DNA of 64,000 nucleotides from Planctomycetota bacterium (GCA_031409275.1 JANNXA010000045.1:4396-68395); one strand, 5' to 3'. Counted from the stretch's first letter, positions 31,501 to 54,789 are shown. The notes: a model not told the origin generated them from the sequence alone. Translations and numbers: made by a program.

Positions 31501-33455
31501 ATGGCGCGCTGAGCGTGCTGAACTCGGCGTTGCCGCGGCTCGCCGGCACCCCGCTCGCCATCGATGCGTCGCTGGAGGAGGTCGTGCTGCATGGACCGCC
31601 CTGCGAGATCTCGCGCATCGAAGCCGCCGAACGCGCCGCGCGCGTCACCAACCACCGCCGCGGCCTCGTGGCCGCGCTCGCCTTCCGGCGCGCGTGGCAC
31701 GTCGGGCGTGGCGATCGCCACGGCGCGGCGGCGACCTTGCGCGCGCTGCAGGAGACGTTGCGCGATGCGACCGGCAGCGATTCGCCCCGCACCCAGCTGC
31801 GCGCGGCGATCGGCATGATGGCGCCGCGCGGCGACGCGGTGCGTCTGGCCGCGAACGGGCGCCACGAACCGAAAGAAGAGATGACGGCTCACCTCCAGCT
31901 GTTGCGCACGTTCCTCTCGATCAACAAGCGCCTCGCCGGCGAGGCCGACGTCGCGCGACTGCTCGACTACCTGGTCGAGACGGCGTTGTCGCTGACCGGC
32001 GCCGAGCGCGGCTTCATCGCGCTCGAAAGCGCCGGGGCGACGCGCTTCGAAGTCGGCAAGAGCGCGCGCGGCGGCGACCTTGGCGCGCCCGAGAAGGAGC
32101 TCTCGTTCAGCTTCCTGCGCCAGTGCCTCGAGAAGGGGCGCACGCTGGTCACCTCGAACGCCGGCCTCGACCCCCGTTTTCGCGAGCAGGCGAGCGTGAG
32201 CGCGCTCGACCTCCGCTCGATCGTCTGCGTGCCGATCCGCGTCGACGACGGAACGCAGGCGGCGCTCTACGTCGATCACCCCGTGCGCGAAGGCGCGTTC
32301 GGTGAGCGCGAGATCGAGCTGTGCGAGGCGCTCGCCGACCAGGCCGGGATCGCGCTGCGCAACCTCCACGCACGCCAGCGCATCGAGACGTTGAACGGCC
32401 AGCTCGCGACGCGGGTCGAAGTCCAGCAGAGCGCGCTCGAGATCGCGACTCGGCGCCTCGATCGCGCCGGCGGGGAGCCATTGGCCGCCGGCGGCGATCA
32501 GCGCTGGATCGGCGAATCGACCACGTTCGTCGCCACCGGCCGCCTGCTCGAACGCTACGCCCAGACCGACCTTTCGGTGCTGGTGCGCGGCGAGAGCGGG
32601 ACGGGCAAGGAGGGGGCGGCGCGTCGCCTCCACGACCTCTCGCCACGGCGCGATCGTCCGTTCGTCAGCGAGAGCTGCACGGCGATCCCGGAGACGCTGC
32701 TCGAAGCGGAGTTCTTCGGGGTCAAGAAAGGCGCGTTCACTGGCGCCGACGCCGATCGCCCCGGGCTCTTCGAGCTGGCGCGCGGCGGCACGCTCTTCCT
32801 CGATGAGATCGGCGAGATGCCGTTGGCCCTGCAGGCGAAGCTGCTGCGCGCGCTCGAGGAACGGGCCGTGCGGCCGTTGGGAGCGCGCGAGGCGGTGGCG
32901 GTTGACCTGCGCCTCGTCACGGCGACGAACCGCGATCTGCGAACGCTCGCGCGCGAAGGGAAGTTCCGCGAGGACCTCTACTTCCGCATCGCTGCCGCCG
33001 AGCTCGAGATGCCGCCACTGCGCGCGCGCAAGGGCGACGTCGTGCCGCTGGCGCAGAGCTTCCTCGAACAGCTGAATCGCGCGCACGCGACCACCCGCCG
33101 CTTCACGCGCGCCGCGCTCGTCGAGCTCGACCGCTATTCATGGCCCGGCAACATCCGCCAGTTGAAGAACGAGGTGCAACGCGCCTTCGCCATCGCGGAG
33201 GACGACGACCTCGACTGGCAGGCGCCACAAGGAGGCGTCGAACGCGCCAGCGGTTCGATGCGGTTCCCGGAGCCGCTGCCGACGCTCGCCGAACTGGAGA
33301 AGCTCGCCATCACGGAGGCGCTGACGCGCCATGACGGCGACAAGGAGGCGGCCGCCCGCGCCATCGGCATCTCGCGCGCGTCGATCTACGACAAGGTGCG
33401 CCGCTACGACCTCGGTCCAGCTTCTGGACGTCGCAGTGCGAAGGATCCGGCGTAG
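28572..33455 (+). CDS. Fusion of Ser/Thr protein kinase, TPR/helical region, GAF domain and sigma-54-dependent AAA+ activator with C-terminal Fis-type HTH (1627 aa).
   Basis: Kinase motifs HADLKPENVLL, DFGLA, PPE. GAF region about 1150-1330. Sigma-54 activator Walker A GESGTGKE, GAFTGA motif, arginine fingers. C-terminal HTH (DKEAAARAIGISRASIYDKVRR). Confidence 0.85.
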   Translation: MNRRDDDLSMARPAHGDGEVARVRLPDGRLAVRKRFASAAQPEFRAEVGALLEVAAPEITRLLDAGVDDDGRAWLVREWVEGSSLREALPVSTAARSRVLQDVLAGLSALHRAGLIHADLKPENVLLCDDGSAKLCDFGLATATQLQGALAAGSSYYLPPERLLGWPLDARADLFSFGLLLYELLGGALPSDAAAFYARFPREPLLPLLPTDLAKHGVTPATIRVIERLTAIDPWQRPADVAQTQALLAAVGLLPTEATRRPRPRLRSDFFLAPAMAHASTLLAAESPARCLYLLPRREDGPAFERALALAAAIHGVARDLPDAPARSRQRRLKIGRADAATLRSCGARIATGASLMGLWWSERPRAEWSELPPWITLVPFASPDPARLAAELAGHVGLRDALPLPLLRLAEALIDELGPDPAAIDATLDALVAQGRLMDDGGGVHAPPLATRWEGLPRPALPDVPLEPALANLVRALEIADEPLPAATFERLAQALECAPARARAQLEQLRLAVAAPAGWSAVPGRLPPATPSQRQQAGAALLAASPLEGPRPRLRLLAAFAAQAHREAAQLLVDHWRELADGRVDALLPELELLLATSECDSATRHAIGELLLAAGRGARAATLFESVAEEGGAPLELQLRALRRAGDVALLRGNYDDARRAFERGCARGKRTSEEHYFIRGLADARLRSGDAAGALALLEPLFPRGAAPTRERLEAEPLRALALLRHGDLAAAEDVLKRAIAATRPLGHPGLLAVLLTNLSLAQWRSGRPLVAIETAREALSIQEERGQAHEIAALHLNLGTILLDLLRFDEARHHFEAALELRRALSEARGIALAQAGIALVAVEQGHLAAAATGFAAARPILAAVGQPREQLRCELGHCKERFRSGHWSGLTLALRSLVARAEAGGHLDVAIDGAHLLLERALASPGNSAIERAAENFALLERLVGTSRDAAATTALQMRRAQLKRAVGDVDGALSVLNSALPRLAGTPLAIDASLEEVVLHGPPCEISRIEAAERAARVTNHRRGLVAALAFRRAWHVGRGDRHGAAATLRALQETLRDATGSDSPRTQLRAAIGMMAPRGDAVRLAANGRHEPKEEMTAHLQLLRTFLSINKRLAGEADVARLLDYLVETALSLTGAERGFIALESAGATRFEVGKSARGGDLGAPEKELSFSFLRQCLEKGRTLVTSNAGLDPRFREQASVSALDLRSIVCVPIRVDDGTQAALYVDHPVREGAFGEREIELCEALADQAGIALRNLHARQRIETLNGQLATRVEVQQSALEIATRRLDRAGGEPLAAGGDQRWIGESTTFVATGRLLERYAQTDLSVLVRGESGTGKEGAARRLHDLSPRRDRPFVSESCTAIPETLLEAEFFGVKKGAFTGADADRPGLFELARGGTLFLDEIGEMPLALQAKLLRALEERAVRPLGAREAVAVDLRLVTATNRDLRTLAREGKFREDLYFRIAAAELEMPPLRARKGDVVPLAQSFLEQLNRAHATTRRFTRAALVELDRYSWPGNIRQLKNEVQRAFAIAEDDDLDWQAPQGGVERASGSMRFPEPLPTLAELEKLAITEALTRHDGDKEAAARAIGISRASIYDKVRRYDLGPASGRRSAKDPA

Positions 33456-35405: not shown

Positions 35406-36977
35406 CTACGACTGGTCGAGCGTGTAGCTCACCGCCTCGATGCCCGGACGCCCCGCCATCTGGCTCTGCTCCCACTTGATGAAGTCGGAGCGCACGCCCA
35501 TGACGTTGCTGTAGCGGATCGTGTAGTGCGTCCAGTCCTTCGCCATCAGCTCGTCGGACAGCTCGCGCTCGTGCTCCAGCAGCCCCGCCTTGCGCTTGTC
35601 CCAGGTCGCCTTGTCCATCGCCTCGACTTCGCGGACGAGCTCCTGGTAGATCGGTGCGCATGGCCAGTCGGTCCGCGCATTGACCCACCACGTGCACAGC
35701 TTCCCGAGCTTCTCGAGGAAGAGGTCGTGCTCGGGGCTGAAGTTGAGGCAGCTGCCGTCGAAGTAGTTGCCTAGCCCCTTCATCTTCGATTCATCGATCA
35801 GCGGCTTGGCGATGTCGTAGCCGACCGTTCCCTTGAACGGGAAGAAGATGGCCCAGCGGAAGCGGCCGAGCTTCACCTTCGCGCACAGCTCGAACGTGTC
35901 GAGGATCTCGGCGCGCCCTTCGTGAGGCAGACCGAACATGATGAAGGCGGAGGTGTGCAGGTCGTACTTGTGCGCGTTCGCGAAGCTGTCCTCGATCTGC
36001 TGGTTCGTCATGTAGCGGTGCAGGACGTCGCGGCGGATGCGATCGTTGCCCGACTCGAGCCCGAACTTCACGATCATGCAGCCCGCTTCCTTCAGGTAGC
36101 GCGCCGAGGCGTCATCGAAGCAGTTGACGTGGCCGTTGACGACGAACGGGAGGCCGACGTTCGCTTCCTGGTAGGCCTTGCAGAACTTCTTCACGTACGG
36201 CTTGTTCAGCGTGAAGAGGTCGTCGTCGAAGATGAACGTCTTGATCTGCGGGTAGCGCCCGCGCAGATCCTTCAGCTCGGCGATCTGGCGCTCGATCGGG
36301 AAGCTGCGCAGGAACTCCTTCGGCCCCTTCGCCGCGCCGTCGGCGACGTACTGGTCGACGATCTCGAGGTTGAAGCAATAGGTGCACTTGTAGGGGCAGC
36401 CGCGCGAAGTGAGGATCCCCATCCACCCCTTCGTCGCCGCCAGCACCTTCGGCATGTCGAAGACTTCGTAGTCGAGCGCCGGCAGCGTGTCGAGGCCCGG
36501 GAATGGCGCAACCGGCTTGATCTTCTTCTCGCCGCCGACCCAGCTTCGGATGCCGTTCACCTCGGTCGGGTCGCCGCCCTTCACGAGCGCGTCCATCACG
36601 TCGACGAGCGCATAGTCGCCCTCGCCGATGCAGACGTAGTCCCACAGCTTCGACTCGTGCACTTCGTCCGGCACCATCGTGCAGTGGACGCCGCCGATGA
36701 TCTGCTTCAACTCGGGGAACGCGGCGCGGATCGCCTTGCCCGCCTCGATGCACCAGTCGTACTGCATCGAGAGCGCGGAGAAGCCGATCAGGCCGGGCTT
36801 GGTCTCGCGCACGTAGTCGACGACCTGCGCCATCGTCGGCACCGGCTCGAGCTTCTCGCAAACGTGCCAGAGGTCCATCTCGTGGCCGCGCGACTTCACG
36901 ACGCCCGCGAGCGAAGCGATGCCGTGGTTGCTGCCAGCCGGCGCGTCGAGGCTCGGGTAGAGCAGAAGGATCTTCAT
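35406..36977 (-). CDS. B12-binding-domain radical SAM enzyme (class B).
   Basis: Start at ATG 36977 (MKILLLYPSLDAPAGSNHG, cobalamin-binding domain). Radical SAM cluster motif SRGCPYKCTYCFN, then a TIM-barrel region. Confidence 0.85.
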   Translation of the reverse strand: MKILLLYPSLDAPAGSNHGIASLAGVVKSRGHEMDLWHVCEKLEPVPTMAQVVDYVRETKPGLIGFSALSMQYDWCIEAGKAIRAAFPELKQIIGGVHCTMVPDEVHESKLWDYVCIGEGDYALVDVMDALVKGGDPTEVNGIRSWVGGEKKIKPVAPFPGLDTLPALDYEVFDMPKVLAATKGWMGILTSRGCPYKCTYCFNLEIVDQYVADGAAKGPKEFLRSFPIERQIAELKDLRGRYPQIKTFIFDDDLFTLNKPYVKKFCKAYQEANVGLPFVVNGHVNCFDDASARYLKEAGCMIVKFGLESGNDRIRRDVLHRYMTNQQIEDSFANAHKYDLHTSAFIMFGLPHEGRAEILDTFELCAKVKLGRFRWAIFFPFKGTVGYDIAKPLIDESKMKGLGNYFDGSCLNFSPEHDLFLEKLGKLCTWWVNARTDWPCAPIYQELVREVEAMDKATWDKRKAGLLEHERELSDELMAKDWTHYTIRYSNVMGVRSDFIKWEQSQMAGRPGIEAVSYTLDQS

Positions 36978-37253
36978 CCGGCGTGCGCTCCGGGAACAAG
37001 TCAGAGCAGCGAAGCCCCCGCGAACCAACGCGGCGACGCCTCCGGAAAACGGCTCTCCAGAGGGCTCCTCCCTCGAAACAGGACCAAACTCATACAGATT
37101 CGAGCAGTCGATGCAACGCGCGCATTCGCACGGAGTTGTGGCGGGCGCGGTCGCTTCGGAACCAACTTCTCACCGCGCCCAGGCGTTTCGGCTCCGGATG
37201 GAGCGCCTTGTGACGATTCCTAGGTAGCCACCCCAACGTCGGAGTCCGCCGCC

Positions 37254-41310: not shown

Positions 41311-41906
41311 GAGCGCTCCTTGCGCGAAATCTCGGGTCCGCGCGCGGGCGACAACGGCCGTCCATCGACGCGGCGGGCGTAGACGACCTTGTCGTCGCCG
41401 AGGCGGTAGTAGTCGGGGATGCGAGCGATCTCGACGTAGTTCGCCCGTTCATAGAAGCGGCGCGTCGGCAGATAGGACTCCTTGCCGCCCGTTTCGATGA
41501 GGATCATGCGACCGCCGGCAACCCGCACGGCATCTTCGGCCGCGCGCAACAGCTGTTGACCGATGCCAACCCCGTGCAGCGTCGGATCGACGGCGATCCA
41601 GTAGAGATCGAAGATGCCGTCGGTGAGCGGCGTGAGGCCCCAGCACACGTAGCCGACCGCACGCGCCGCATCGCGTTCGCCAAGTTCGGCGACGCGGAAG
41701 CAATAGTCGTCGGGAAGCGCGGCGGCACCCGATCGCGCCTTGGCGATCCCCTCGTCGATCAGCTCCATCGCGACCGCCAGCTCGTTGTCGGGGAACGAAC
41801 CGGTGGCGCGCAGGATCGCTTCGAGCGGCGCGCGATCGCTGGAATGCAGCTCACGCAACCGGACCGGGCCGGGCAAGCGCGAGGAGGCGGGCGACGAGCT
41901 GCTCAT
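41307..41906 (-). CDS. GNAT-family N-acetyltransferase.
   Basis: GNAT fold motifs VRLRELHSSDRAPLEAIL and acetyl-CoA site VAVDPTLHGVGIGQQLL. The ATG at 41906 overlaps the upstream ATP-grasp gene by 56 nt; a TTG near 41861 is an alternative start. Confidence 0.7.
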   Translation of the reverse strand: MSSSSPASSRLPGPVRLRELHSSDRAPLEAILRATGSFPDNELAVAMELIDEGIAKARSGAAALPDDYCFRVAELGERDAARAVGYVCWGLTPLTDGIFDLYWIAVDPTLHGVGIGQQLLRAAEDAVRVAGGRMILIETGGKESYLPTRRFYERANYVEIARIPDYYRLGDDKVVYARRVDGRPLSPARGPEISRKERS

Positions 41907-42876
41907 AGGTAGCCCCGGTGCGACCCCACGCGCGGGCGAAGCCGGCGTCGGGCGATAGGTCGGGATTGGGATTCGCTTCGAGGACGATCGGCGCGTCGGA
42001 GCCGTCGAGCCGCAAATCGATGCGGCCGTAACCCGTGAGCGACAGCGCATGCCACGCCGCGAGCGCGGCGCCCTGCACCCGCGCCGCGACCGCGGGCGCA
42101 AGCACGGCGTCGACGACGTTCGTGCCGTTCCAGTCGGGGCTGCCCTCGACCCACTTCGACTCGAAGGTGACCAGGCGCGGCCGTCCGGATGGGAACTTGG
42201 CGAAGTCGATCTCGGCCACCGGCAGCACTTGCGGCGCGTCGGCCGTCCCGACCAGCGCGACGTTCAGCTCGCGACCGGCGACGAAGCGCTCGACGAGGGC
42301 GGGCTGCCGATAGGTCTCGACGACGTAGCGCGCACGCGCGCGCGCCGCTGCGACGTCGTCGACCACGCTCGCCGCGGTGATGCCGTGGCTCGCATCTTCG
42401 CGCGCCGGCTTCACGATCCACGGGAACGGCGCACGCGCCGCCAGCGCCGCCAGCAACGCATCGTCGCGAGGATCGCCGCGCTCGAACACGACCCCGTCGG
42501 CGACCGGAACGCCGCCCGCCGCGAGCAACGCCTTCGCCAGTGGCTTGCGCAAACTGAGCGCGCACGCAAGCGAGCGATTCCCGGTGAACGGCAACCCGGT
42601 CAGTTCGAGCAGCGCGGCGACCGCCGGTTCGAGCGCCGCGTCGCCGCGGTAGGACTCGACGAGATTGAAGACGACGTCGGGATGCGCGCGCTGCAGCGCG
42701 GCCAGCAAATCGGCCGGCTGATCGGGCGCCGGTTGCAGCCGCGCTTCGTGGCCCAGCGTGGCGAGCGCCGCCGCGACGGCTCGCGCACAGCTCTGCACGG
42801 AGACGACCGCGAGCGCATCCTGAGCGGATCCGTGGGCGAGCGCCTCCTCGGCGTTGTGCAGCACGACGACACGCAT
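41851..42876 (-). CDS. ATP-grasp enzyme of the D-alanine-D-alanine ligase family (Ddl-like amino-acid ligase).
   Basis: 341 aa with ATP-grasp features (PWIVKPAREDASHGI, VERFVAGRELNVALVG, C-terminal Mg/ATP site EANPNPDLSPD). Confidence 0.75.
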   Translation of the reverse strand: MRVVVLHNAEEALAHGSAQDALAVVSVQSCARAVAAALATLGHEARLQPAPDQPADLLAALQRAHPDVVFNLVESYRGDAALEPAVAALLELTGLPFTGNRSLACALSLRKPLAKALLAAGGVPVADGVVFERGDPRDDALLAALAARAPFPWIVKPAREDASHGITAASVVDDVAAARARARYVVETYRQPALVERFVAGRELNVALVGTADAPQVLPVAEIDFAKFPSGRPRLVTFESKWVEGSPDWNGTNVVDAVLAPAVAARVQGAALAAWHALSLTGYGRIDLRLDGSDAPIVLEANPNPDLSPDAGFARAWGRTGATYEQLVARLLALARPGPVA

Positions 42877-42884
42877 CGCGGCGA

Positions 42885-43877
42885 TCAGCTCCGCGGCAGG
42901 CGGGAGAGCGCCTGGTCGAGGATGCGACCGATCAACCCGTCATGGTCGAGGCCGACGCGCTCCGACATCACGCAGAGGTCGCTCCAACCCGGGTTGACGC
43001 CCGGCAGCGGATTGAGCTCGATGAAACGAGGCACGCCATCGGCTCCGAGCCGCACATCGACGCGACCGACGTCGCGACACTGCAGCGCGCGATAGGCGGC
43101 CAGCGCGGTGCGTTCGACCGCGGCCGTCAGCTCCGGCGCGCGGCGCGGCGGGACGTGGTATTCGACCTGCTCGTCCCAGACGCGCTTCACCTCGACCGAG
43201 TAGACGAAGTCCGCGGTGACGCCGCCCTTCGGGCAGATCTCCATCGTCGCGAGCACGTGCGCGCGCTCGCCCTGACCGAGGATGCCGACGGTGAACTCCG
43301 GCCCGGTGAGGAACTCCTCGATGAGCGCGGGCTGCTCGTAGCCGGTCAACAGGCGCTCGACTTCACGGCGCAGCGCAGCGTCGTCGTTGCTCTTGCTGGT
43401 CTTGCGCACGCCCATGCTCGAGCCTTCGAACAGCGGCTTGGCGATGCATGGAAACGGCAGTTCGAGAGTCGCGAGCTGCTCGACCGTCGAGACCACCACT
43501 CCGCGCGCGACGGCGACGCCGGCGGCAGCGGCGATGGTCTTGGCCAGCGCCTTGTCGAGGCTGAGCGCGAGCGTCAACGGATCGCTGTGGGTGCAGGGAA
43601 CGCCGACCATCTCGCAGGCGGCCGGCACGTGCGCCTCGCGCGAACGGGTGCCGTGGCCTTCGGCGACGTTGAAGACGAGCTCGGGCGGCCGCTCCAGCAG
43701 CGCGGCGAGGAAGCGCTTGCCGCCGCCCATGCGCCGCGGACGGTGGCCGCGCCGACTCAACGCCGCCTCGATGGCGGCGATCGTGCGATCCGAGTCGTAC
43801 TCCTCGAGCCGATCGTCCGGTGCGCCAGCGGCCGCCGTGAAGTCGCTCTTCAGGTCGAATGCGATGCCGATGTCCAC
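42885..43877 (-). CDS. Second ATP-grasp enzyme of the D-alanine-D-alanine ligase family.
   Basis: GTG start 43877 with an AAGGG Shine-Dalgarno 7 nt upstream; the upstream 470 codons of ORF 42885..45293 are Arg-rich antisense of kamA. ATP-grasp motifs (FPCIAKPLFEGSSMGV, IEEFLTGPEFTVGILG, ELNPLPGVNPGWSD). Confidence 0.75.
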   Translation of the reverse strand: MDIGIAFDLKSDFTAAAGAPDDRLEEYDSDRTIAAIEAALSRRGHRPRRMGGGKRFLAALLERPPELVFNVAEGHGTRSREAHVPAACEMVGVPCTHSDPLTLALSLDKALAKTIAAAAGVAVARGVVVSTVEQLATLELPFPCIAKPLFEGSSMGVRKTSKSNDDAALRREVERLLTGYEQPALIEEFLTGPEFTVGILGQGERAHVLATMEICPKGGVTADFVYSVEVKRVWDEQVEYHVPPRRAPELTAAVERTALAAYRALQCRDVGRVDVRLGADGVPRFIELNPLPGVNPGWSDLCVMSERVGLDHDGLIGRILDQALSRLPRS

Positions 43878-43906
43878 GACCGCCCTTTCGTCCGCTCGCG
43901 CTTCGT

Positions 43907-45379
43907 TCAGGTCGAGTCGCGACGACTGCGGCCGCGGTGCGCCCACTTGCTCTTGCCGACCACGGTCTCGGTGGCCGGTGGCGCCGGCGCGGCTCCGTCC
44001 GCAGCGCTCGACGCCGACGCTGCGACGACCGGCGCTTTGCTCCGACCGCCGCTCTTCTCGCGACCATGGCTGCCATTGCGGCCGTTGCTCGAATGGCCGT
44101 TCTGCTCGGCCGCGTCGGCCGCCGACACCGCGAGTGCCGGCCGCGCGTGGCTGCTGCTCAGCGCGATCGGACCAGCGGCCGGCGTCGCGTTGGCCGAGGC
44201 CACGAGACGGCGGTGCAGGATCTCCTCCTCCGGCAGCTGCTCGAAGTACTCGAAGATGCGCCCCTGGAAGTTGCGCAGGATCGCGCGCTGCTTCTTCGGG
44301 TCGTAGTGGAGCAGGTAGTTGGGATTGACCGGCACCTTGCCGCCGCCGCCGGGCGCGTCGATGACGTACTGCGGCACGGCGAGTCCGGAGGTGTGGCCGC
44401 GCAGCCCCTCCATGATCTCGAGTCCCTTGGCGATGGTCGTGCGCATGTGTTCGCTGCCGCGCACCGGATCGCAGTGGTACACGTAGTAGGGGCGCACGCG
44501 CATCTTCATCAGGCCGTGCATCAACCCCTTCATGGTCTCGACGCTGTCGTTGACGCCCTTCAGCAGCACCGCCTGGTTGTTCAGCGGGATGCCGGCACGC
44601 GAGAGCATGTCGCACGCGCGCGCCGCTTCGGGCGTGCACTCGCGCGGGTGGTTGAAGTGCACGTTCACCCAGAGCGGGTGGTACTTCTGCAGCATGTCGC
44701 ACAACTCGGCATCGACTCGCTGCGGCAGCGAGACGGGCACGCGGGTGCCGATGCGGATGATCTCGAGATGCGGGATGGCCCGCAGCTTGGAGAGGATCGA
44801 TTCGAGCTTGCCGGTCGAGCAGGTGAGCGGGTCGCCACCCGACACGACCACGTCGCGCACGGTCTTGGTCTTCGCGATGTAGTCGACCATGCGGTCGATC
44901 TCCATCTCCGGCACGGCGTCCTCGTACATGATCCGCTTGCGCGTGCAGTAGCGGCAGTAGACCGCGCACGAGTTGCTGATCACCATCAGCACGCGATCGG
45001 GATAGCGATGCGTGATGCCGGGGACGGGCGAGTAGGCCTCTTCGCCGAGCGGATCCTCGTCGCCGACGTCGCGGTAGGTGTACTCCTCCGCGATCGGCAC
45101 CGCCTGCCGCAGGATCGGATCGTCCGGATCGTCGGCATCGATCAGCGCCAGGTAGTACGGCGGGATGCCCATGCGGAAGTCGCGCAGCACCTCGCGGCGC
45201 ACCTCGCGCTCGCCTTCGGGGATCGGCAGCAGCTTGATCAGCTGTTCGAGGTCCGTGACGCGATTGCGGAACTGCCACTTCCAGTCGTTCCACTCCGCGT
45301 CGGAGACGTTCGGGTAGTAGTGGGCGCGACCCGTGCGTCGCGCAGCCACTGCGGCAGCGAGCCCGCTGCTCTGGATCAC
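43907..45379 (-). CDS. kamA: Lysine 2,3-aminomutase (radical SAM, KamA family).
   Basis: KamA N-terminal WNDWKWQFRN and the radical SAM CxxxCxxC motif CAVYCRYCTRKR. GTG start 45379 with a GGGAGA Shine-Dalgarno 8 nt upstream. 490 aa with a low-complexity C-terminal tail. Confidence 0.85.
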   Translation of the reverse strand: MIQSSGLAAAVAARRTGRAHYYPNVSDAEWNDWKWQFRNRVTDLEQLIKLLPIPEGEREVRREVLRDFRMGIPPYYLALIDADDPDDPILRQAVPIAEEYTYRDVGDEDPLGEEAYSPVPGITHRYPDRVLMVISNSCAVYCRYCTRKRIMYEDAVPEMEIDRMVDYIAKTKTVRDVVVSGGDPLTCSTGKLESILSKLRAIPHLEIIRIGTRVPVSLPQRVDAELCDMLQKYHPLWVNVHFNHPRECTPEAARACDMLSRAGIPLNNQAVLLKGVNDSVETMKGLMHGLMKMRVRPYYVYHCDPVRGSEHMRTTIAKGLEIMEGLRGHTSGLAVPQYVIDAPGGGGKVPVNPNYLLHYDPKKQRAILRNFQGRIFEYFEQLPEEEILHRRLVASANATPAAGPIALSSSHARPALAVSAADAAEQNGHSSNGRNGSHGREKSGGRSKAPVVAASASSAADGAAPAPPATETVVGKSKWAHRGRSRRDST

Positions 45380-46123
45380 CTGGAATCTCCCTGGAATCGC
45401 GCGGAGCGGACGATGCGATGAAGCATCGACTCGCGTGTCAGAGGTGAGCGCGCGACGCCGGCCATGTTGGAACGGCGGATGCAGCGTGACGCGTCGAGAC
45501 GACGCGTCGCCATCCGCGACTGCTTCGCGAACGTTGGAATCGGAAGGGGGCGAACCGAGCGCGAGCCGGAACGGATGCGAAGGGGAGCGACGGTCGCGAC
45601 GAGCGCGCCGAGCCGACCGCAGCCGGCGACGGCGCGCGTCGTACCTGGAGGTTCGCTCTCGACCGATGCTTCGTCCGCATCGACCCCGAGCGCTCGGATG
45701 CGACCGGCGCTCCGCGAGCCTCGTCCACTCTCCCCGACCACGAGGAGCATCACGTTCGTCCGCGAGGTCTTCCGCAGCGGCCAGCAGCCGCCAAAGCGTT
45801 CCCCTCGATCAACGGCGGGACGTCGCAGTTGCGATTGGCCGACCCGACCCATCGCAAGCTTGTCGAACGAGTCCCGTCCCTCGCCTCGACGGCGACTCGT
45901 CGAACGAGCGCGCTGGGTCAAGCTCAGGAAGAACGGGCGGAACCATACGGACGTCAGGAGGGGGCTGACAAGCGGCAAGCCGGCTCCAAGTACAAGGTGT
46001 TGAGAACCTCGCCGCCACGTTTCGCCGAAAGGGCCGCTTGGATGCGCGCTTGAACGGTGCACCGCCGACGTTGAAGCTCACCTGCGAGCCGGACCACGCT
46101 CCATCCACGGATCGCCCCACTTC

Positions 46124-48154
46124 ATGAAACCCCTCGCCGCCGCCTGTCGCACCGCCCGTTTCGGAGCCCTCGCGGCGGGCGCCGTGGTCGGAGTCGCCGG
46201 CTGGCAATGGCCGACGCTCTTCGGCTCCGCCGGGGAGCGGCTGGGAACGGGGCTGCTGCTCGTGGTGGTGCCCACCGTCGTCGCCGCGCACGTCGCGCTG
46301 CCGCTGGCCCAGCGCCTCGCGAGCGCGGTCGCCGCCGCGCTCTGGAGCGGCGTGCTGGTCGCCGTCGTGGCGGCGCTCTACCTGCCGACGGTCACCCCGC
46401 TCGCCGTCGCCATCGCTGCCGCCGTCGGCGCGCTCGTGGGTGGACTGATTGGCCGCAGCAACTGGTTCGAGCGGCGCGCCGCCACCGTCGTCGCCGTGGT
46501 CGCGCTGGCGGCCGCCAGCAGCGTCGGCGTCGTGCGCCGCCCCCTGCCAGCCGAACCCGCGTCGCCCCACCCGAACACCTTCGTCTTCGGCCTCGACGCC
46601 GGCACCTGGACGATCCTCGACGAACTGATGGCGAACGGCGACCTCCCCAACCTGCGCCGACTGCGCGAAGAGGGAGTGAGCGGCACGCTGCGCTCCGAAA
46701 TCGAGTCCTCATCGCCGCGCGTCTGGACCACGATCGCCACCGGCAAGACCCCTTCGAAGCACGGTGTCGTCGACTTCTTCTGCACGCAGAACGACAACCT
46801 GACGACGCGCCGTGTCTGGGAGATCTTGCAGGCGCAGGGCTACAGCGTCGGGTTGTTCCAGTGGCTGGTGACCTGGCCGCCCGACCCCTTCGATCCCTTC
46901 GTGGTGCCCGCATGGATGGCGCGCGGTCCGGAGACGCATCCGGCGGAGCTCTCGTTCATCAAGGAACTCGAGCTCGCGTTCCAGACCGGCGAGTTCGACC
47001 AATGGCGCGCGCAACGCGAATGGCCCACGCTGCTCACGCGACTGCGCGACTGGGGAGTCGGATACCTGCGCCACGGACTGCGCATGCCGACGCTGTGCGC
47101 CGCCCTGTCGCAAGCGTGGACGGCCGCGACGAGTCCGAGCTGGGAACTCCAGTACGGCGCCAAGCGGACGCTTCAGCTGCTGCTGAACGGCGACGTCTAC
47201 CGTGAGCTCTACCGCCGCCACCAGCCCGACTTCTCCGCCTTCATCTGCTACGGGACCGACAACCTCGCCCACAAGTTCTGGCAGTACCACTACCCCGACG
47301 ACTTCGCGATCCCGCACGGCGCCGCCGCCCCCTTCGCCAACCTGCTGACCGACTACTACCGCGCCGCCGATGCGCTGCTCGGCGAGGTGCTCGCGCTGCT
47401 GCCCGCGGACACGACGGTGGCCGTCGTCTCCGACCACGGCTTCACGTCGATCGGCGAAGGCGGCGAGTCGCACCAACGGGAGCTGCGTCCGAAGATGAGC
47501 CGGCTCGCCTCGCTGCTCGAGCTGACCGAACGCGACGTCCTCTGGTCGGCCGTCGCGACTCGCGGCTACTTCCGGCCCGTCGCAGGCGCCATCGGCGCCG
47601 ACGCTGCCGCACGGAGGATCCTCGACTTCCTCGGCGGCTGCGAGGTCGTCGGCGGTCCGAAGCTCTTCGTGCCGAAGGTGCTCGACTCCGGCCAGATCGA
47701 GGTCGCGATCAACCTCGACGTGAAGTTCGAGCGCGACACCGAATTCGCCACGCCGAAAGGGCCGATGCTCCTCACCGACCTCGTCGACGTCGAGGATCGC
47801 ACCGGCAACCACTCGATCGACGGGATCGTGCTGTTGCGCGGTCCGGCGTTTCGCCGCGGCGCGCGGATCGAGACCGCTCACCTCGCCGATGTGACGCCGA
47901 CGCTGCTCCACTTGAATGGGTTCGCCGTCGGCGCCGACATGGACGGCCGCGTGCTCGAAGAGGCGTTCACCGATGCGTTCCGTGAAGAGCACTCGATCGA
48001 GCGCATCGAGAGCTGGGACGATCTCGTGAATGTCACGCGCGCAGCGGCCGGACCAGGCGACGAGCGCGGGTGGCGCAAGTACGCCAGCGAACTCGGCTAT
48101 GTCGATGGCGGCGACAAGGCGACGCCCGCCGGAGCACCGAAGGAGCGGGAGTAG
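46124..48154 (+). CDS. Membrane-anchored alkaline-phosphatase-superfamily enzyme (type I phosphodiesterase/nucleotide pyrophosphatase family).
   Basis: Three to four N-terminal TM helices, then FGLDAGTW (metal-site Thr nucleophile region) and VVSDHG motifs. Confidence 0.75.
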   Translation: MKPLAAACRTARFGALAAGAVVGVAGWQWPTLFGSAGERLGTGLLLVVVPTVVAAHVALPLAQRLASAVAAALWSGVLVAVVAALYLPTVTPLAVAIAAAVGALVGGLIGRSNWFERRAATVVAVVALAAASSVGVVRRPLPAEPASPHPNTFVFGLDAGTWTILDELMANGDLPNLRRLREEGVSGTLRSEIESSSPRVWTTIATGKTPSKHGVVDFFCTQNDNLTTRRVWEILQAQGYSVGLFQWLVTWPPDPFDPFVVPAWMARGPETHPAELSFIKELELAFQTGEFDQWRAQREWPTLLTRLRDWGVGYLRHGLRMPTLCAALSQAWTAATSPSWELQYGAKRTLQLLLNGDVYRELYRRHQPDFSAFICYGTDNLAHKFWQYHYPDDFAIPHGAAAPFANLLTDYYRAADALLGEVLALLPADTTVAVVSDHGFTSIGEGGESHQRELRPKMSRLASLLELTERDVLWSAVATRGYFRPVAGAIGADAAARRILDFLGGCEVVGGPKLFVPKVLDSGQIEVAINLDVKFERDTEFATPKGPMLLTDLVDVEDRTGNHSIDGIVLLRGPAFRRGARIETAHLADVTPTLLHLNGFAVGADMDGRVLEEAFTDAFREEHSIERIESWDDLVNVTRAAAGPGDERGWRKYASELGYVDGGDKATPAGAPKERE

Positions 48155-50170: not shown

Positions 50171-50245
50171 TGGAGCGGGTGATGAGGATTGAACTCACGA
50201 CAACCACGTTGGCAACGTGGTGCTCTACCACTGAGCTACACCCGC
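50171..50245 (-). tRNA. tRNA-Gly (anticodon GCC), CCA encoded.
   Basis: Minus-strand sequence GCGGGTGTAGCTCAGTGGTAGAGCACCACGTTGCCAACGTGGTTGTCGTGAGTTCAATCCTCATCACCCGCTCCA folds as a canonical cloverleaf (7-bp acceptor, D, anticodon loop TTGCCAA, T arm GTTCAATCC). Confidence 0.85.
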
Positions 50246-50406: not shown

Positions 50407-51216
50407 TCAATCGCGTGGCGGGAGCCCAAGGTACGGCCGCCCGGCACCGTACCTGCGCGCGCCGGCGCGCGCGCGGGCCAACCAGCGCTGTGCCGCCGCG
50501 ATCGCCGAGAGCCACGGCTCCCCGCCCGCAACTCCCGCTGAGATCGCCGACGCCAGCGCGCAGCCGGTGCCGCGCGGCGAGACGCCGCGCTGTCGCGGCT
50601 GAACGAATTCGTGGCTGCCGAAGCGGCCGCACAAGAAGTCGACGACCGCGCCGCGCGAAGCGAGGTGACCGCCCTTCAGCAACACGGCCGCCGGCCCGAG
50701 TTCGAGCAGCGCTCGTGCCGCCGCCATCGGCTGGCGCACGATCGCCGCGTGCGTCCAGCCCAGCAGCTCCGCCGCTTCGAGCGCATTGGGCGTCAGCAAC
50801 GTCGCCTTCGCCACGATGCTTCGCCGATAGAGCGCAAGCGCGCTCGCCGGCAGCGTCCGCTCGCCGCGGGTCGGCGCGAAGACGGGATCGACCACGAAGG
50901 GGACTTTCGGACAGGCGGCTGCCAGCTCGCCGATCCGCTCGATCCACGCGCGATTCGCCACCATGCCCACCTGCACGACGGCGATCCGCGCGTCGCGGCG
51001 CAACGCCGCCAGCGGCCGCGCCATCGTGTGCACGGAGGTCGGGGTCACCGCCGACAATCCGACCGCCGTCTGCAGCGTCACGCAGGTCGCCAGCGCCGCC
51101 GCGTGGCTCCCGAAGATCGCGTGCACCTTGAGGTCGAGTTCGAGCCCGGCACCGCCGCTTGGGTCGGAGCCGGCAAGGAGCAGCGTGAGCGCGGCACGCC
51201 GGCGCGCAGCGCTCAC
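50407..51216 (-). CDS. thiD: Hydroxymethylpyrimidine/phosphomethylpyrimidine kinase (ThiD).
   Basis: N-terminal LLLAGSDPSGGAGLELDLK ribokinase/pyridoxal-kinase fold and C-terminal GTGCALASAI. 4-nt overlap with the upstream gene. Confidence 0.8.
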   Translation of the reverse strand: MSAARRRAALTLLLAGSDPSGGAGLELDLKVHAIFGSHAAALATCVTLQTAVGLSAVTPTSVHTMARPLAALRRDARIAVVQVGMVANRAWIERIGELAAACPKVPFVVDPVFAPTRGERTLPASALALYRRSIVAKATLLTPNALEAAELLGWTHAAIVRQPMAAARALLELGPAAVLLKGGHLASRGAVVDFLCGRFGSHEFVQPRQRGVSPRGTGCALASAISAGVAGGEPWLSAIAAAQRWLARARAGARRYGAGRPYLGLPPRD

Positions 51217-52034
51217 GGCCGTTCACCGCGCAGGTGTCGCGCCGCGGCCAGTAGCGGTCCCGGTCCCTGGAAGGGCTCGGCGCGCAGCACCAACGTGCAT
51301 TCGCCGGACAAGGCGCCGATCACGGCTTTCAGATCGACCTCGCCGGCTCCTGCCGGCAAGCCGCAGTATCCCGCCACGGCGTCCGTCGCATCGAGCCCGA
51401 CGCAGCGTCCCGCGAGTTGATCGAGCCAGCGCGGCGCCGCCGGACCGCCAGCGTGCCCGAACGCCGCCGCTCGACCGCTGTCGTGCCACCAAGCCACCTG
51501 ACGACGACGCGCAAGATCGGCAAGGACGGCAGCCACCGCTTCCGGCGTCCACCACTCGCTGCGTGTCCGCGGCAACGCGAGTGCGATGCCCTGATCGGCA
51601 CGTGGCTGCGTGGCTTCGTGGAGCGCACGGCAGAGTCGCTCCAGGCGCCGATCGCGCTCGGTCGGCGACACCGCCTCTTTGCCGCTGCCGTCACTCGCTT
51701 CCGGCAGCTCGACGATGGTCCAGCGCGCTCGCATGGCTGAGGCGAGGTCGAGCGAACCTTGGAGATCTCCGACGGCGGCCGCCAGCACGACCGGGTCGGC
51801 CGCGACCAACGAGCGCGGGACGCCGACCGACGCCCCACCGCAGAGGAAGGGATGACGGATCGCCGGGCAGCGCACGCCCGAAAGGTCGCGCCGCATCCGC
51901 TCGGCAGCAGGAGCCGCCACCGTCCCACCGGGAACCCACGCCCGGACGCGCAGCGCCTCGAGCCACCCCGCGACCTCTTCGAGCGGGGGCAGTTGGCCCG
52001 ACGTCGCATCCACTGCCAGTGCCAACTCGCGCAT
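51213..52034 (-). CDS. Hypothetical TIM-barrel protein (sugar-phosphate isomerase/epimerase-like).
   Basis: ATGA coupling to thiD, high GC3. Weak similarity of WWHDSGRAAAFGHAG to xylose-isomerase-like TIM barrels. Confidence 0.45.
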   Translation of the reverse strand: MRELALAVDATSGQLPPLEEVAGWLEALRVRAWVPGGTVAAPAAERMRRDLSGVRCPAIRHPFLCGGASVGVPRSLVAADPVVLAAAVGDLQGSLDLASAMRARWTIVELPEASDGSGKEAVSPTERDRRLERLCRALHEATQPRADQGIALALPRTRSEWWTPEAVAAVLADLARRRQVAWWHDSGRAAAFGHAGGPAAPRWLDQLAGRCVGLDATDAVAGYCGLPAGAGEVDLKAVIGALSGECTLVLRAEPFQGPGPLLAAARHLRGERP

Positions 52035-52236
52035 GCTCGCCGCCTCCTCGACGGTGCGGCCGCGAAACGGCCGACCACTCCGGCACCACTACCCCATTCC
52101 CCGGGCGGCGGCAGACAATTATCTAACAGCGCCCAAGATGCCCCGGTACCAGCCGAGTACGTCTGGCTCCATGCGGAATGAAGCACCAGCGAACCTCGCT
52201 GCCCCGCGGGGTTCGTCTCCAACAAGAGGAATGAGC

Positions 52237-54789
52237 ATGAGACATTTGGCCTGGACCTCCTGGAAGACGGCAGCATTGCTTGCCGTCATGACCAGCGGCG
52301 CCGTCGCGCAGAGCGCGCCGATGCCCGCGTCGACGCCAGGCGGTGAAGCCACCGCGCCGGCCGCCGATCGCCCCTACCTCGGCGTCTTCATCGAAGGCGC
52401 GGCCGATGGTGGCGGCGTGAAGCTCGCCGAGATCGTCGAAGGCAGCCCGGCCGCGAAGGCAGGGCTCCAGGCGGGCGACGTGATCGTCGCGTTGGGCGAC
52501 CGCACGATCGGCTCCGAAGAAGAGCTGCGCGATGCCATCACCTCGATGGGCGTCGGCGCCAAGACCAAGATCACCTTCCTGCGTGACGGCGAGAAGCGAC
52601 GCACCAGCGCACGGCTCGCGGCCGCGCCGGCGGAGATGGAAGGCGAGGAAGGTGAGGAAGGCGAGAACGAGGGTTCCGGCGACGAGCGCAACGCGACGAT
52701 CGAGTTCAACCAAGTCACCGACGCCTCCGATTTCGGCGGCATGGTCGAACTCGCCCCGATGTCGGACGACAACGCCGGCTGGATGGGCGTGCAGCTGCAG
52801 GCGAACGACGAGGGCGAGGTCTCCATCCTCGCGGTCGTTCCCGGCTCCCCCGCCGAAGCGGTCGGCCTTCAGGCCGGCGATATCTTCGAGCGCTTCGACA
52901 CCGATGAAGTCGACTCGGTCGAAGGTCTGGTCGAACAGGTCCGCGAGCACCAGGCCGGCGACGTCGTCAAGCTGCGCGTGCGGCGCGGCGACAAGGTCCT
53001 GAAGCCCAAGCTCACGCTCGGCAAGCGCGACGCAAATCTCGCGGTGCCCGGCATGAGCAGTGGGATGGCCTCGATCGAACTCGTGCCGGCGGCGACCCCA
53101 GCCGCCCCGTCTGCCAACGCCGGACCGACTCCGCCCGGCCGTCTGCACGCGCGAATCGCCGCTGCGCGCGGTGCCGCTGCCGCCGGCAACGCCGCCCCTT
53201 CGGCTGAGAGCGCGGAAATGCAGAACACGATCCGCGCGCTGAAGCAGCAGGTCGACGAGCTGCGTTCACGTTGCGAAGAGCAGCAGCGGATGCTGGAGCG
53301 CGTCCGCGAGGCGCTCGGTGGCGGCAGTGGCGGCGGTGGCCGTCGCGAGCCGCAGCCCGATTCGATGCCGATGCCGGCACCGATGCCCGGCGGCTCGCTC
53401 TCCTTCGCTCCCGGTGGCGAAGCGGGCTCCCTCGCGATCGGCGGTGGCGACGTCAGCTTCACGCTGAGCCCGCTCAGCTCCGGCACCTTCGCCGTCGACA
53501 CGGCACGTGACACCACCGAGGAGACGGTCCGCGCGTTGAGTGAATCGGCCGACCAGACGGTCCGCGCCATCACGCTCGAAGGGCAGAACCTCACGTTGCA
53601 ACTGCAAGGGGCCAACGACGGTGCCGCCCTCTGGACCATGGACGGCGATGCCGTCGCCACGATCCAGGGCATGGCCAGCTGCACCGCCGGTGGCGACGAC
53701 TGCTGCGCGAGCGGCGAGTCCAACGCCGATTCATGCTGCGCGAGCGGCGAGTCGGACGACGGCTCGTGCTGCGCGAGCGGCGAGTCCAAAGCGGACTCTT
53801 GCTGCGCGAGCGACGGATCCGATTCCGAAGCTTGCGCCGCGACGACCTGCGATGAGGCGGGGGCGGACGGTGCGCTGATGTTCACCTTCTCCGACGCGAC
53901 TGGAAACGTGACCGCCGGTAGCGCCGAGGGGATCGCGCTGTTCGGCGGCGACGAGGGCGGTCGCATCCGCCTCGTGACGACGAATGGCGGCGACGGCGGC
54001 TCGTGGACGACCGCCACGCCAACCAAGCCTGCCAAGGCGCAGAAGGTGAAGTCGGTCAAGGGGATGAAGATCGAGCCGGCCAAAGAGGCGACGTGGATCG
54101 TCACGGAGAAGGCTCACCAGGGCCGACTGCTCGACGATGGCCGCTGCGAAGATTGCCAGGCTCCCTGCTGCCAGCAGCCGCGCGGCAAGATGCCCGCCGA
54201 GTTTGGTCGTCGCCCCGAAGCGGCGCCCCGCGGCGCGGCCGGCCGCGCGCTGCCCCCGATGGTCGCTCCTCGCGCCCCGCGTGCTCCGCGTGCCGCCGTC
54301 GCTTCCCGGGCCGCACGTGCGCCGCGCGCTGCCCAGGCGCCCCGCGCACCGCGGCTGCGCGTGGAGACGCGCGAGGTCGAGGAATCGGAATCGTGCGCGT
54401 GCGAGTGCCCGGCCATGAAGGCGCATGGCCAAGGACACGGACAGGGACACGGCGCCGCGATGCCGAAGCTGCTGCGCCTGCATTCCATCGCGCCGCACCA
54501 CGGCAAGGCGCTGCTGCGCTTGCACACGAGCCAGGGTGACAGCGAGATCGAATCGGGCGAATTCGAGTTGGCGTTCAGCCCCGACTCGAACGACGAGGTC
54601 ACGCAGTTCGAAGGCATGCGCCTCGAGGTCGACGGATCCGAGGACGGAGCGCTCTTCTTCGAGATGCCGTGCGAGATCGAGTGCACGCTCGACGGCGATG
54701 ACTCGGAATGCAACGTCGACTGCGACGAAGAGTGCGAAGTTCAATGCGAAGTGCAGTGCGCGGTCGATTGCGACGACAGCGGGAAGTGA
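52237..54789 (+). CDS. Secreted double-PDZ protein with coiled coil, four CC-ASGES tandem repeats, an APRAPR basic repeat, an HGQGHGQGHG tract and a Cys/Asp/Glu-rich C-terminus.
   Basis: AAGAGGA Shine-Dalgarno 6 nt before ATG 52237 (ATG 52231 is also possible). Signal peptide, two PDZ domains (GLQAGDVIVALGD and GLQAGDIFERFD), then CCASGESNADSCCASGESDDGSCCASGESKADSCCASDGSDSEAC and a C-terminal CEIECTLDGDDSECNVDCDEECEVQCEVQCAVDCDD. Confidence 0.7.
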   Translation: MRHLAWTSWKTAALLAVMTSGAVAQSAPMPASTPGGEATAPAADRPYLGVFIEGAADGGGVKLAEIVEGSPAAKAGLQAGDVIVALGDRTIGSEEELRDAITSMGVGAKTKITFLRDGEKRRTSARLAAAPAEMEGEEGEEGENEGSGDERNATIEFNQVTDASDFGGMVELAPMSDDNAGWMGVQLQANDEGEVSILAVVPGSPAEAVGLQAGDIFERFDTDEVDSVEGLVEQVREHQAGDVVKLRVRRGDKVLKPKLTLGKRDANLAVPGMSSGMASIELVPAATPAAPSANAGPTPPGRLHARIAAARGAAAAGNAAPSAESAEMQNTIRALKQQVDELRSRCEEQQRMLERVREALGGGSGGGGRREPQPDSMPMPAPMPGGSLSFAPGGEAGSLAIGGGDVSFTLSPLSSGTFAVDTARDTTEETVRALSESADQTVRAITLEGQNLTLQLQGANDGAALWTMDGDAVATIQGMASCTAGGDDCCASGESNADSCCASGESDDGSCCASGESKADSCCASDGSDSEACAATTCDEAGADGALMFTFSDATGNVTAGSAEGIALFGGDEGGRIRLVTTNGGDGGSWTTATPTKPAKAQKVKSVKGMKIEPAKEATWIVTEKAHQGRLLDDGRCEDCQAPCCQQPRGKMPAEFGRRPEAAPRGAAGRALPPMVAPRAPRAPRAAVASRAARAPRAAQAPRAPRLRVETREVEESESCACECPAMKAHGQGHGQGHGAAMPKLLRLHSIAPHHGKALLRLHTSQGDSEIESGEFELAFSPDSNDEVTQFEGMRLEVDGSEDGALFFEMPCEIECTLDGDDSECNVDCDEECEVQCEVQCAVDCDDSGK
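53701..53832 (+). repeat. Four tandem copies of a 33-bp unit (tgctgcgcgagcggcgagtcNNNNNNNNNNNNN) encoding CCASGES-x4 modules inside the PDZ/Cys-rich gene.
   Basis: Direct reading: units at 53701, 53734, 53767 and 53800. The first 20 nt are nearly identical and the last 13 are variable. Confidence 0.8.

Follow-up and report, generated by a model that had tools for sequence, protein, structure and literature searches.

A 64,000-nucleotide stretch of DNA from a Planctomycetota bacterium (GCA_031409275.1 JANNXA010000045.1:4396-68395), referred to here as the window, carries at positions 52237–54789 of its plus strand a complete gene of 850 codons plus stop. The encoded protein combines an N-terminal pair of PDZ domains with a coiled coil and a long cysteine-rich C-terminal half, and an original prediction made from the DNA alone had proposed it to be a secreted double-PDZ protein devoid of a protease domain, and a candidate periplasmic metal-binding or sensor protein. 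The translation and the Pfam and NCBIfam searches agree with this outline of the reading frame, the two PDZ domains and the missing protease, and a signal peptide is likewise predicted. The G+C content is ~70% throughout the window, and reaches 0.83 at the third codon positions (GC3) of the PDZ gene. A longer open reading frame from position 52033 is possible; the start at 52237 is preferred because all homologues begin at the equivalent of its MRHLAW sequence, and because an AGAGG Shine-Dalgarno sequence, invariant in an alignment of the orthologous upstream regions, precedes that ATG. The 850-residue protein is very acidic, with 133 Asp and Glu residues against 77 Lys and Arg.

A search of 5.8 billion protein clusters returned the exact protein and ~17 full-length relatives of 757–922 amino acids, all with two PDZ domains and all from uncultured Planctomycetota. 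The relatives have no curated names, some carry misleading automatic ones (RseP, PulC, S1-C protease), and we found no description of the PDZ/Cys-tail family in the literature. The N-terminal halves align well, and the C-terminal halves align poorly while keeping the order of their blocks. A profile of the region following the PDZ domains (574 positions), searched with HMMER against 1.84 billion representatives, gave 18 matches; the 11 at E ≤ 1e-30 are all family members, and the others are family fragments or chance coiled-coil matches. As this exhaustive search returned nothing else, the coiled coil and the Cys-rich half are confined to the family. A contig scan with back-translated PDZ motifs, which are generic, listed 80 loci, all of them encoding DegP-like or other PDZ proteins and none a family member. 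This is a lineage-restricted family of PDZ proteins, exported by prediction and previously undescribed. The host is assigned to an uncultured Planctomycetota lineage because of the identity distribution of purB homologues (~23 clusters at ≥75% identity, the next at ≤68%).

Residues 1–24 (52237–52308) are predicted to form a Sec-type signal peptide, with a basic n-region, a predicted hydrophobic helix at residues 9–19 and an AxA cleavage site, AVA|QS, after A22-V23-A24. Q25, the predicted mature N-terminus, is invariant across the family. From these N-terminal sequence features we infer export. A lipoprotein was considered and rejected, there being no conserved lipobox Cys, and Tat export was rejected for want of a twin-arginine motif.

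The PDZ head is matched by Pfam PDZ_2 in two stretches (E = 6e-29), and nothing else in the 850-residue protein exceeds the Pfam threshold. PDZ domain 1 spans residues 45–130 (52369–52626; PDZ_2 over 46–124) and PDZ domain 2, the second Pfam and NCBIfam PDZ stretch, residues 178–265 (52768–53031), both modeled with a predicted local distance difference test score (pLDDT) above 90. Between them lies an acidic, disordered linker (residues 131–177; 52627–52767; net charge about −12, pLDDT <50). In PDZ1 the motif GEKRRTSARL is invariant, and the invariant columns are L48, G49, K120, R121, T123, S124, A125 and L127; in PDZ2, G184 and V185 are invariant. Since both carboxylate-binding loops (YLGV in PDZ1, WMGV in PDZ2) are conserved, the two domains have probably retained the binding of C-terminal peptides. 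In Foldseek, the tandem lies near those of DegQ and DegP (both E = 2e-12) and that of RseP; among the other matches is 9hmf_D, a periplasmic scaffold protein with PDZ that belongs to the flagellar motor of Campylobacter.

The NCBIfam models of DegP, DegQ, DegS, RseP, Ctp and MamE match the protein through their PDZ parts only and far below their cut-offs, from which we conclude that there is no protease domain. TIGR02037 scores 93.6 bits against a cut-off of 416, over profile positions 258–341, which are the PDZ part alone, and TIGR00054 (RseP) scores 41.7 bits against 147.55, again over PDZ only. There is no match to the trypsin-like protease domains PF13365 or PF00089, none to the M50 peptidase PF02163, and no transmembrane segment apart from the signal peptide.

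The coiled coil that had been proposed to follow is modeled as a single 37-residue helix (residues 323–359; 53203–53313; pLDDT ~90), and a clean a/d heptad register is present in 17/17 members. Its core holds an invariant Cys346 (53272–53274) at heptad position 'a' and an invariant Gln349 at the following 'd'. The protein is presumably oligomeric; the core residues mix dimer-like and tetramer-like patterns, so that the oligomeric state is not deducible from them. TolA_bind_tri (PF16331), the trimerization domain of the likewise periplasmic CpoB (YbgF), matches weakly, at 20.4 bits against a gathering score of 30.1, and below threshold in 7/17 members (best E 7e-5); the tetratricopeptide repeat (TPR) domain of CpoB has no counterpart in the window protein.

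AlphaFold2, run on the window protein with the 17-sequence family alignment, gives a weak β region at residues 441–468 and pLDDT <50 for nearly all of residues 470–850. This ~480-residue half, predicted to be unstructured, contains 26 of the 27 cysteines, the remaining one being that of the coiled coil. It has no recognizable relatives outside the family: Pfam and NCBIfam searches of all 17 members yielded PDZ and weak coiled-coil matches only, and a PDB sequence search with the C-terminal half gave 0 matches. A known disulfide-rich module, which had been named as the finding that would overturn the metal-binding idea, is not detectable by any of these searches or in the AlphaFold model.

The first cysteine cluster (residues 482–538; 53680–53850) has 11 Cys, including four CC doublets encoded by the 33-bp DNA repeat of the CCASGES modules that had been noted. 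Tandem Repeats Finder reports 3.4 copies at 53701–53812; the in-frame units of the tandem block 53701–53832 read CCASGESNADS, CCASGESDDGS, CCASGESKADS and CCASDGSDSEA, and the initial 18 nucleotides are identical in three copies. The DNA of the gene, including the repeat, is identical in three assemblies, namely the window and two independent Logan assemblies (L001, L002), which differ from the window by one base over 10.5 kb; the repeat is not a misassembly, because independent assemblies carry identical DNA. No copy-number variants were seen among the three assemblies, which gives no support to the suggestion that repeat number could vary; cluster size does differ between species, the equivalent acidic clusters of the homologues holding 1–4 CC doublets. 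A metagenome scan with a 20-mer of the CC repeat produced 15 single chance matches and no encoded relative.

Beyond cluster 1, a Gly/Asp-rich and then a Lys-rich stretch lead to cluster 2 (54142–54207), RCEDCQAPCC at residues 636–645 followed by PAEFG at 653–657. A CxxC/CC cluster aligns here in 11/13 members, and PAEFG[RK] is present in the window protein, P0002–P0007, P0010 and P0011. The basic Ala-Pro-Arg repeat then spans residues 663–709 (54223–54363) in net positive blocks; its APR-encoding DNA repeat lies at 54262–54363, with periods of 9 and 36 in Tandem Repeats Finder. Homologues have AKP or K-rich repeats at this place, with AKPAKP-type stretches in P0006 and P0010. CACECPAM (residues 720–727) and a His-rich tract reaching to residue 763 come next (54394–54525), the tract including HGQGHGQGHG (730–739) and, in the DNA, a 6-bp HGQ repeat (54433–54452). 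The anatomy originally described is right in outline. The strongly acidic tail (residues 764–850; 54526–54786; pLDDT ~35) is also as described; the claim of eight or more CxC/CxxxC pairs in it does not hold, as the tail has eight Cys (residues 812–845) that form six CxxxC pairs and no CxC, and the whole protein has eight CxxxC. Cys and Val/Ile alternate in the tail with acidic or polar residues, and a 12-bp CEVQ repeat lies at 54733–54760.

AlphaFold predicts no helices in the Cys clusters of either the window protein or the relative P0014. In P0014, residues 765–796 (WKCDGPCELKVGPNGAEFHCEGSCEIS) are modeled as two β-hairpins with a CxxxC pair flanking each turn (pLDDT 66–79), in a segment WKCDGPCEL...FHCEGSCEIS with the spacing C-x3-C-x12-C-x3-C. 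According to this model, the segment may be a small zinc-ribbon-like or disulfide-stapled module within the disordered tail. The equivalent in the window protein (54667–54725) has diverged and, at pLDDT ~35, is not confidently modeled. The small Tim proteins, which carry the twin-Cx3C motif, are helical hairpins, and zinc ribbons use CxxC knuckles. At their extreme C-termini, members of the clade of the window protein end in G-G-x-K/R, and those of a second clade (P0008, P0009, P0012–P0016, P0018) end mostly in hydrophobic residues that look like PDZ ligands (IRVF, INFY, INLL, LPAI, VNV; EIN in P0009); residues 852–856 of P0014 are assigned as a strand by DSSP, at pLDDT only ~43.

Every member has 15–31 Cys in its C-terminal half, a single Cys in the coiled coil and none in the PDZ half; five members carry, in addition, a few Cys in a signal peptide or N-terminal extension. 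Past the coiled coil, the post-PDZ profile keeps just three residues invariant (G739, C812 and C825), and C837 is conserved in ≥90% of members. Other than C346, C812 and C825, the cysteines vary among members in both position and number, and the mature Cys count is odd in 8/17, that is, there is no even-number bias. Spacing was tested in the 17 members against 500 shuffles: CC occurs 67 times against 15.5 expected, a 4.3-fold excess, CxxxC 67 times against 13.3 and CxxC 32 times against 14, and for each spacing 0/500 shuffles reach the observed number. Within three positions of Cys, Glu is enriched 2.2-fold, Ser 1.6-fold and Asp 1.4-fold, and hydrophobic, basic, His and Met residues are depleted beside the cysteines. 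Judged from the aligned sequences, selection on the long tail for cysteine clusters in an acidic, flexible context is established. In the window protein, the His/Met tract contains nine His and Met in 40 residues, a number reached by 3/300 shuffles, and a significant His/Met-rich 40-residue window exists in 11/17 members, always at a relative position of 0.72–0.89, as in HGQGHGQGHG (window protein), MHGMHGMQGMMGM (P0007) and GHAGMGMGGHAGMGM (P0016). In the alignment around the invariant Gly739, His and Met replace each other; interchangeable His and Met are typical periplasmic Cu(I) ligands.

In every locus examined, the PDZ gene is flanked on one side by thiD and a gene for a 273-residue TIM-barrel-like protein, both divergent from it, and on the other by a convergent purB-VanZ-HATPase_c_2-nadC group; it is a single-copy gene in a conserved housekeeping neighborhood. 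The same slot is occupied by P0021, with three PDZ domains (L103 8001–10598; purB side), and by P0017, with six (L104 8001–11342; thiD side). Each has a coiled coil and acidic Cys clusters in which CxxxC predominates (6/12 Cys gaps in P0017), and neither is detected by the post-PDZ profile. By their position they seem to be orthologues, with tails now too divergent for a hidden Markov model to recognize; because they keep these features while escaping the profile, the tail is conserved in composition and motif grammar and not in sequence.

The protein falls outside the HtrA, RseP, metallothionein, Csp and PcoE/SilE families, since the defining feature of each was looked for and is absent; homology to the first two is limited to PDZ, and the others resemble it in motif or function. 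With HtrA proteases (DegP, DegQ) and RseP it has in common the PDZ sequence and predicted fold, the x-Φ-G-Φ loops and the periplasmic location, which in its own case is predicted; however, it has no trypsin-like or M50 domain, and its PDZ domains are N-terminal and followed by the coiled coil and disordered tail. A survey of microbial PDZ proteins found a protease in 88% of those classified, so that PDZ proteins without one are a minority, and an expansion of PDZ proteins in Planctomycetes; it does not describe the architecture of double PDZ, coiled coil and Cys tail (PMC6411480). Csp1 is exported and stores many Cu(I) ions on thiolates at CxxxC/CxxC spacing (PMC7558416), but it is a rigid, Tat-exported four-helix bundle, and only the CxxxC spacing is shared with the window protein, which has a Sec-type signal, no predicted helices in its Cys regions and no Pfam match to Csp. 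Bacterial metallothioneins (SmtA/BmtA, ~55 residues, Cys9His2, CxC-rich) give no Pfam match at E ≤ 1, and the CxC spacing is not enriched in the family.

There is also a resemblance, at the level of motifs, to short metal-binding tails. The tails of Hpn and HspA from Helicobacter and of SlyD from E. coli are disordered Gly/acidic/His-rich sequences with Cys-Cys doublets, and the window protein has four CC doublets in a D/G/S/E context within a segment predicted to be disordered; its DDCCASGES resembles the [DE/G]CC motifs of Hpn (EEGCC) and HspA (GSCC). In SlyD and HspA, as in the window protein, the tail is appended to a protein-binding module, and the design of a protein-binding head with a disordered metal tail parallels that of SlyD. 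These tails are cytoplasmic, 30–60 residues long and of no sequence homology to the present one, which, in contrast, is predicted to be exported, comprises ~480 residues with four Cys clusters and is dominated by CxxxC. In Hpn and HspA, the Cys-Cys doublet (EEGCC, GSCC) is a Zn(II)/Ni(II) anchoring site (PMC10221980). The PcoE/SilE sponges and the disordered Met/His region of PcoB share with the window protein a periplasmic setting, disorder and the multi-site metal binding proposed for it, as well as His/Met tracts in 11/17 members (PMC7558416; PMC12509749). PcoE and SilE, however, are small, have no cysteines, and belong to metal-induced, plasmid- or island-borne copper/silver resistance operons, unlike the PDZ gene, which belongs to a syntenic core, has no metal genes around it and gives no PcoE/SilE family match. 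From its sequence features, we class the protein as a PDZ scaffold protein with a low-complexity Cys/His tail of metal-binding type.

We propose, with a probability of roughly 0.4, that the product is a PDZ-anchored, oligomeric periplasmic protein that binds and buffers metal ions, probably Cu(I) or Zn(II). The PDZ1–PDZ2 head would most likely dock it onto the C-terminal tail of a partner protein, and a parallel coiled coil of five heptads, with the invariant Cys and Gln in its core, would oligomerize it. The ~480-residue half, with its four Cys clusters in an Asp/Glu/Ser/Gly context, a basic Pro-rich spacer and a tract that is His-rich here and His/Met-rich in orthologues, would bind thiophilic metal ions reversibly and at high capacity in the periplasm, Cu(I) and/or Zn(II) being the best guesses. 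The protein would act as a PDZ-tethered metal buffer or chaperone, in a mode like that of the Cys/His-rich tails of SlyD, Hpn and HspA or of the PcoE/SilE sponges, but through thiolates. This reading is favored because the cysteines are confined to the predicted disordered half and are nearly the sole invariant residues there, because CC doublets in a Gly/acidic context resemble the metal anchors of Hpn and HspA, and because the His/Met tracts recur at a fixed relative position. A classical disulfide-knotted module is disfavored because there is no positional conservation, no even-number bias and no predicted fold. Periplasmic thiolate- and Met/His-based copper proteins have precedents in Csp1, CopG (CxCC), CueP and PcoE (PMC7558416).

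Several observations weigh on the other side, and leave the metal-binding part of the original prediction as the best-supported reading, still short of proof. Periplasmic cysteines are normally oxidized, so that free thiolates would need protection or a reductant, and no thiol protection or reductant was identified; neither the window nor seven orthologous loci contain metal-homeostasis, efflux or Dsb/thiol-reductase genes, the neighbors being housekeeping genes. CxC, the classical metallothionein spacing, is not enriched among the 17 members (9 observed, 14.7 expected). The four closest relatives of the window protein and P0012 have no His/Met tract, and one member comes from the freshwater of Lake Baikal, a habitat that is not metal-rich. 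The low complexity of the sequence makes analogy weak evidence, and an exported protein with 26 Cys could equally be disulfide cross-linked. A further-reaching version is more doubtful, though possible: that the family is a new class of periplasmic metal store or chaperone, Sec-exported, PDZ-tethered, coiled-coil-oligomerized and metallothionein-like, whose 15–31 Cys are kept reduced and bind Cu(I) and/or Zn(II), as a core housekeeping part of an uncultured, partly freshwater clade of Planctomycetota. The invariant Cys layer of the coiled coil is possibly an additional inter-chain thiolate metal site.

Disulfide cross-linking leads to the main alternative, which we hold possible but doubtful: the protein may be an envelope scaffold or tether that builds a covalent periplasmic network. 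A parallel oligomer would be stapled at Cys346, in-register CC and CxxxC motifs of adjacent chains would form inter-chain cystine ladders, and the PDZ heads would grip the C-termini of envelope proteins or, in orthologues with hydrophobic ends, their own. The predicted export, the placement of 26 Cys after an oligomerizing helix with a core Cys at 'a', the Cys/Val alternation with acidic residues in the tail, which is a β-strand pattern, and the Pro-rich APR/AKP repeats, which resemble periplasm-spanning spacers, are all consistent with it. A single-copy gene in a housekeeping neighborhood conserved clade-wide fits a structural core component over an accessory resistance factor, and the Foldseek match to 9hmf_D is to just such a periplasmic PDZ scaffold. 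The IRVF, INFY, INLL and LPAI ends of the second clade are plausible PDZ ligands, and that of P0014 is modeled as a strand, albeit at low pLDDT. Planctomycete envelopes rich in cysteine and proline are known, and the Chlamydiae, which are related, have cysteine-rich envelope proteins; the latter and the collagen III cystine knot, formed from a CC doublet, offer precedents. However, Cys positions and numbers are unconserved save for C346, C812 and C825, counts are odd as often as even, and the acidic neighbors of the cysteines are unlike the Pro, Gly and hydrophobic residues of structural cystine proteins. Neither Pfam nor NCBIfam finds a membrane, lipid or peptidoglycan anchor domain, AlphaFold predicts no fold, and the recurring His/Met tract is left unexplained.

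An envelope-stress or redox adaptor or sensor is unlikely, and the sensor role named in the original prediction finds no support. Oxidation of the tail, or its compaction by metal, would signal the redox state or metal load of the periplasm, and the PDZ domains would recruit or activate a separate protease or signaling partner, as those of DegS and RseP do within their own polypeptides. In line with this, the PDZ domains are of the HtrA/DegS/RseP type, the invariant core Cys could serve as a redox switch, and a promoter-like element precedes the gene. Within the 202-nucleotide divergent intergenic region, an alignment of five orthologous upstream regions reveals a conserved block (TTTTTTCTAAC...CCGGTAGAAG plus TCCGGCCCC; 52115–52170) with the core ATCTAAC-N15-CCGGTA at 52121–52148 of the plus strand. 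Each orthologous locus has exactly one TTYTAAC-N15-CCGGTA, in all cases upstream of the PDZ gene (L083 9847–9874, L085 647–674, L101 2923–2950, L102 7845–7872), and the window has one occurrence with one mismatch against 0 expected. We take the AAC-N16-CGGTA layout, conserved upstream of the gene, to be reminiscent of promoters of extracytoplasmic function (ECF) sigma factors (AAC ... CGT). Rfam finds in the upstream region and the window only a tRNA and one chance match, and no family for the element, and a scan for sigma-70 promoters and terminators found nothing. Against a sensor stand the absence of any protease, transmembrane, kinase, anti-sigma or other output domain in the protein and of an adjacent sigma or anti-sigma gene, the nearby HATPase_c_2 gene sitting in the convergent purB operon; a ~480-residue tail with up to 31 Cys suggests capacity, not switching.

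Still less probable is a charge-block disordered protein with hard cations (Ca2+, Mg2+, Fe) or anionic or cationic polymers as its main ligands, in which binding or self-association would be the work of polyacidic and polybasic blocks, with a secondary role for the Cys. The overall charge is extreme, the acidic-basic-acidic block order is conserved, and several orthologues end in long Asp/Glu runs with few Cys; however, no residues of the tail are better conserved than the cysteines, and their spacing departs strongly from random, which is unexpected if they are incidental. Two other candidates were rejected: c-type haem attachment, as CxxCH occurs in one homologue only, and a precursor of a ribosomally synthesized and post-translationally modified peptide, as the protein is 850 residues long and its PDZ domains are folded, and as no radical-SAM gene lies closer than 7 kb (43910–45379), the next being at 15 kb (35409–37028). 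An artefact, either a spurious reading frame or a repeat collapsed or expanded by misassembly, is excluded: GC-rich DNA does contain many long spurious reading frames in all frames, but the PDZ match at E = 6e-29, the 17 full-length homologues with kept synteny, the GC3 of 0.83 and the identity of the DNA in three assemblies, by which the proposed misassembly falls, are incompatible with it.

A functional linkage to the neighboring genes was rejected, as they are housekeeping genes on the opposite strand. The 273-residue protein gene (51213–52034, minus strand) has no Pfam match, accompanies thiD in all cases and diverges from the PDZ gene; for the orthologue in L104, there is a faint xylose-isomerase-like TIM-barrel (AP_endonuc_2) match. 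A single tRNA gene (Rfam, 70 bits) lies at 50174–50245 on the minus strand, between an sppA-like gene and thiD. Further away, the plus strand at 28572–33455 encodes a 1627-residue regulator composed of a Ser/Thr protein kinase, TPR, GAF, a sigma-54 interaction AAA+ domain and HTH_8, and 41854–48154 contains genes for a D-Ala-D-Ala-ligase-like protein, a lysine-2,3-aminomutase-like radical-SAM protein and a type I phosphodiesterase, which are syntenic at the P0016 locus (L102 11–5988).

The family illustrates cleanly how a long disordered region can be conserved in composition and not in sequence. If the ECF-like element is real, it would place the PDZ gene in a regulon of the envelope-stress type, and if the protein is a cross-linked scaffold, it would be a candidate for a covalent component of the planctomycete envelope, which is poorly understood. 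In the cytoplasm, high-capacity metal binding by cysteines is familiar from metallothioneins, Csp3 and the SlyD and Hpn tails; it is rare in the oxidizing periplasm, where the sponges that are known rely on Met and His. A thiolate store anchored by PDZ domains, if true, would raise the questions of how exported thiols stay reduced, how metals are buffered and passed to periplasmic enzymes, and what PDZ proteins without a protease do.

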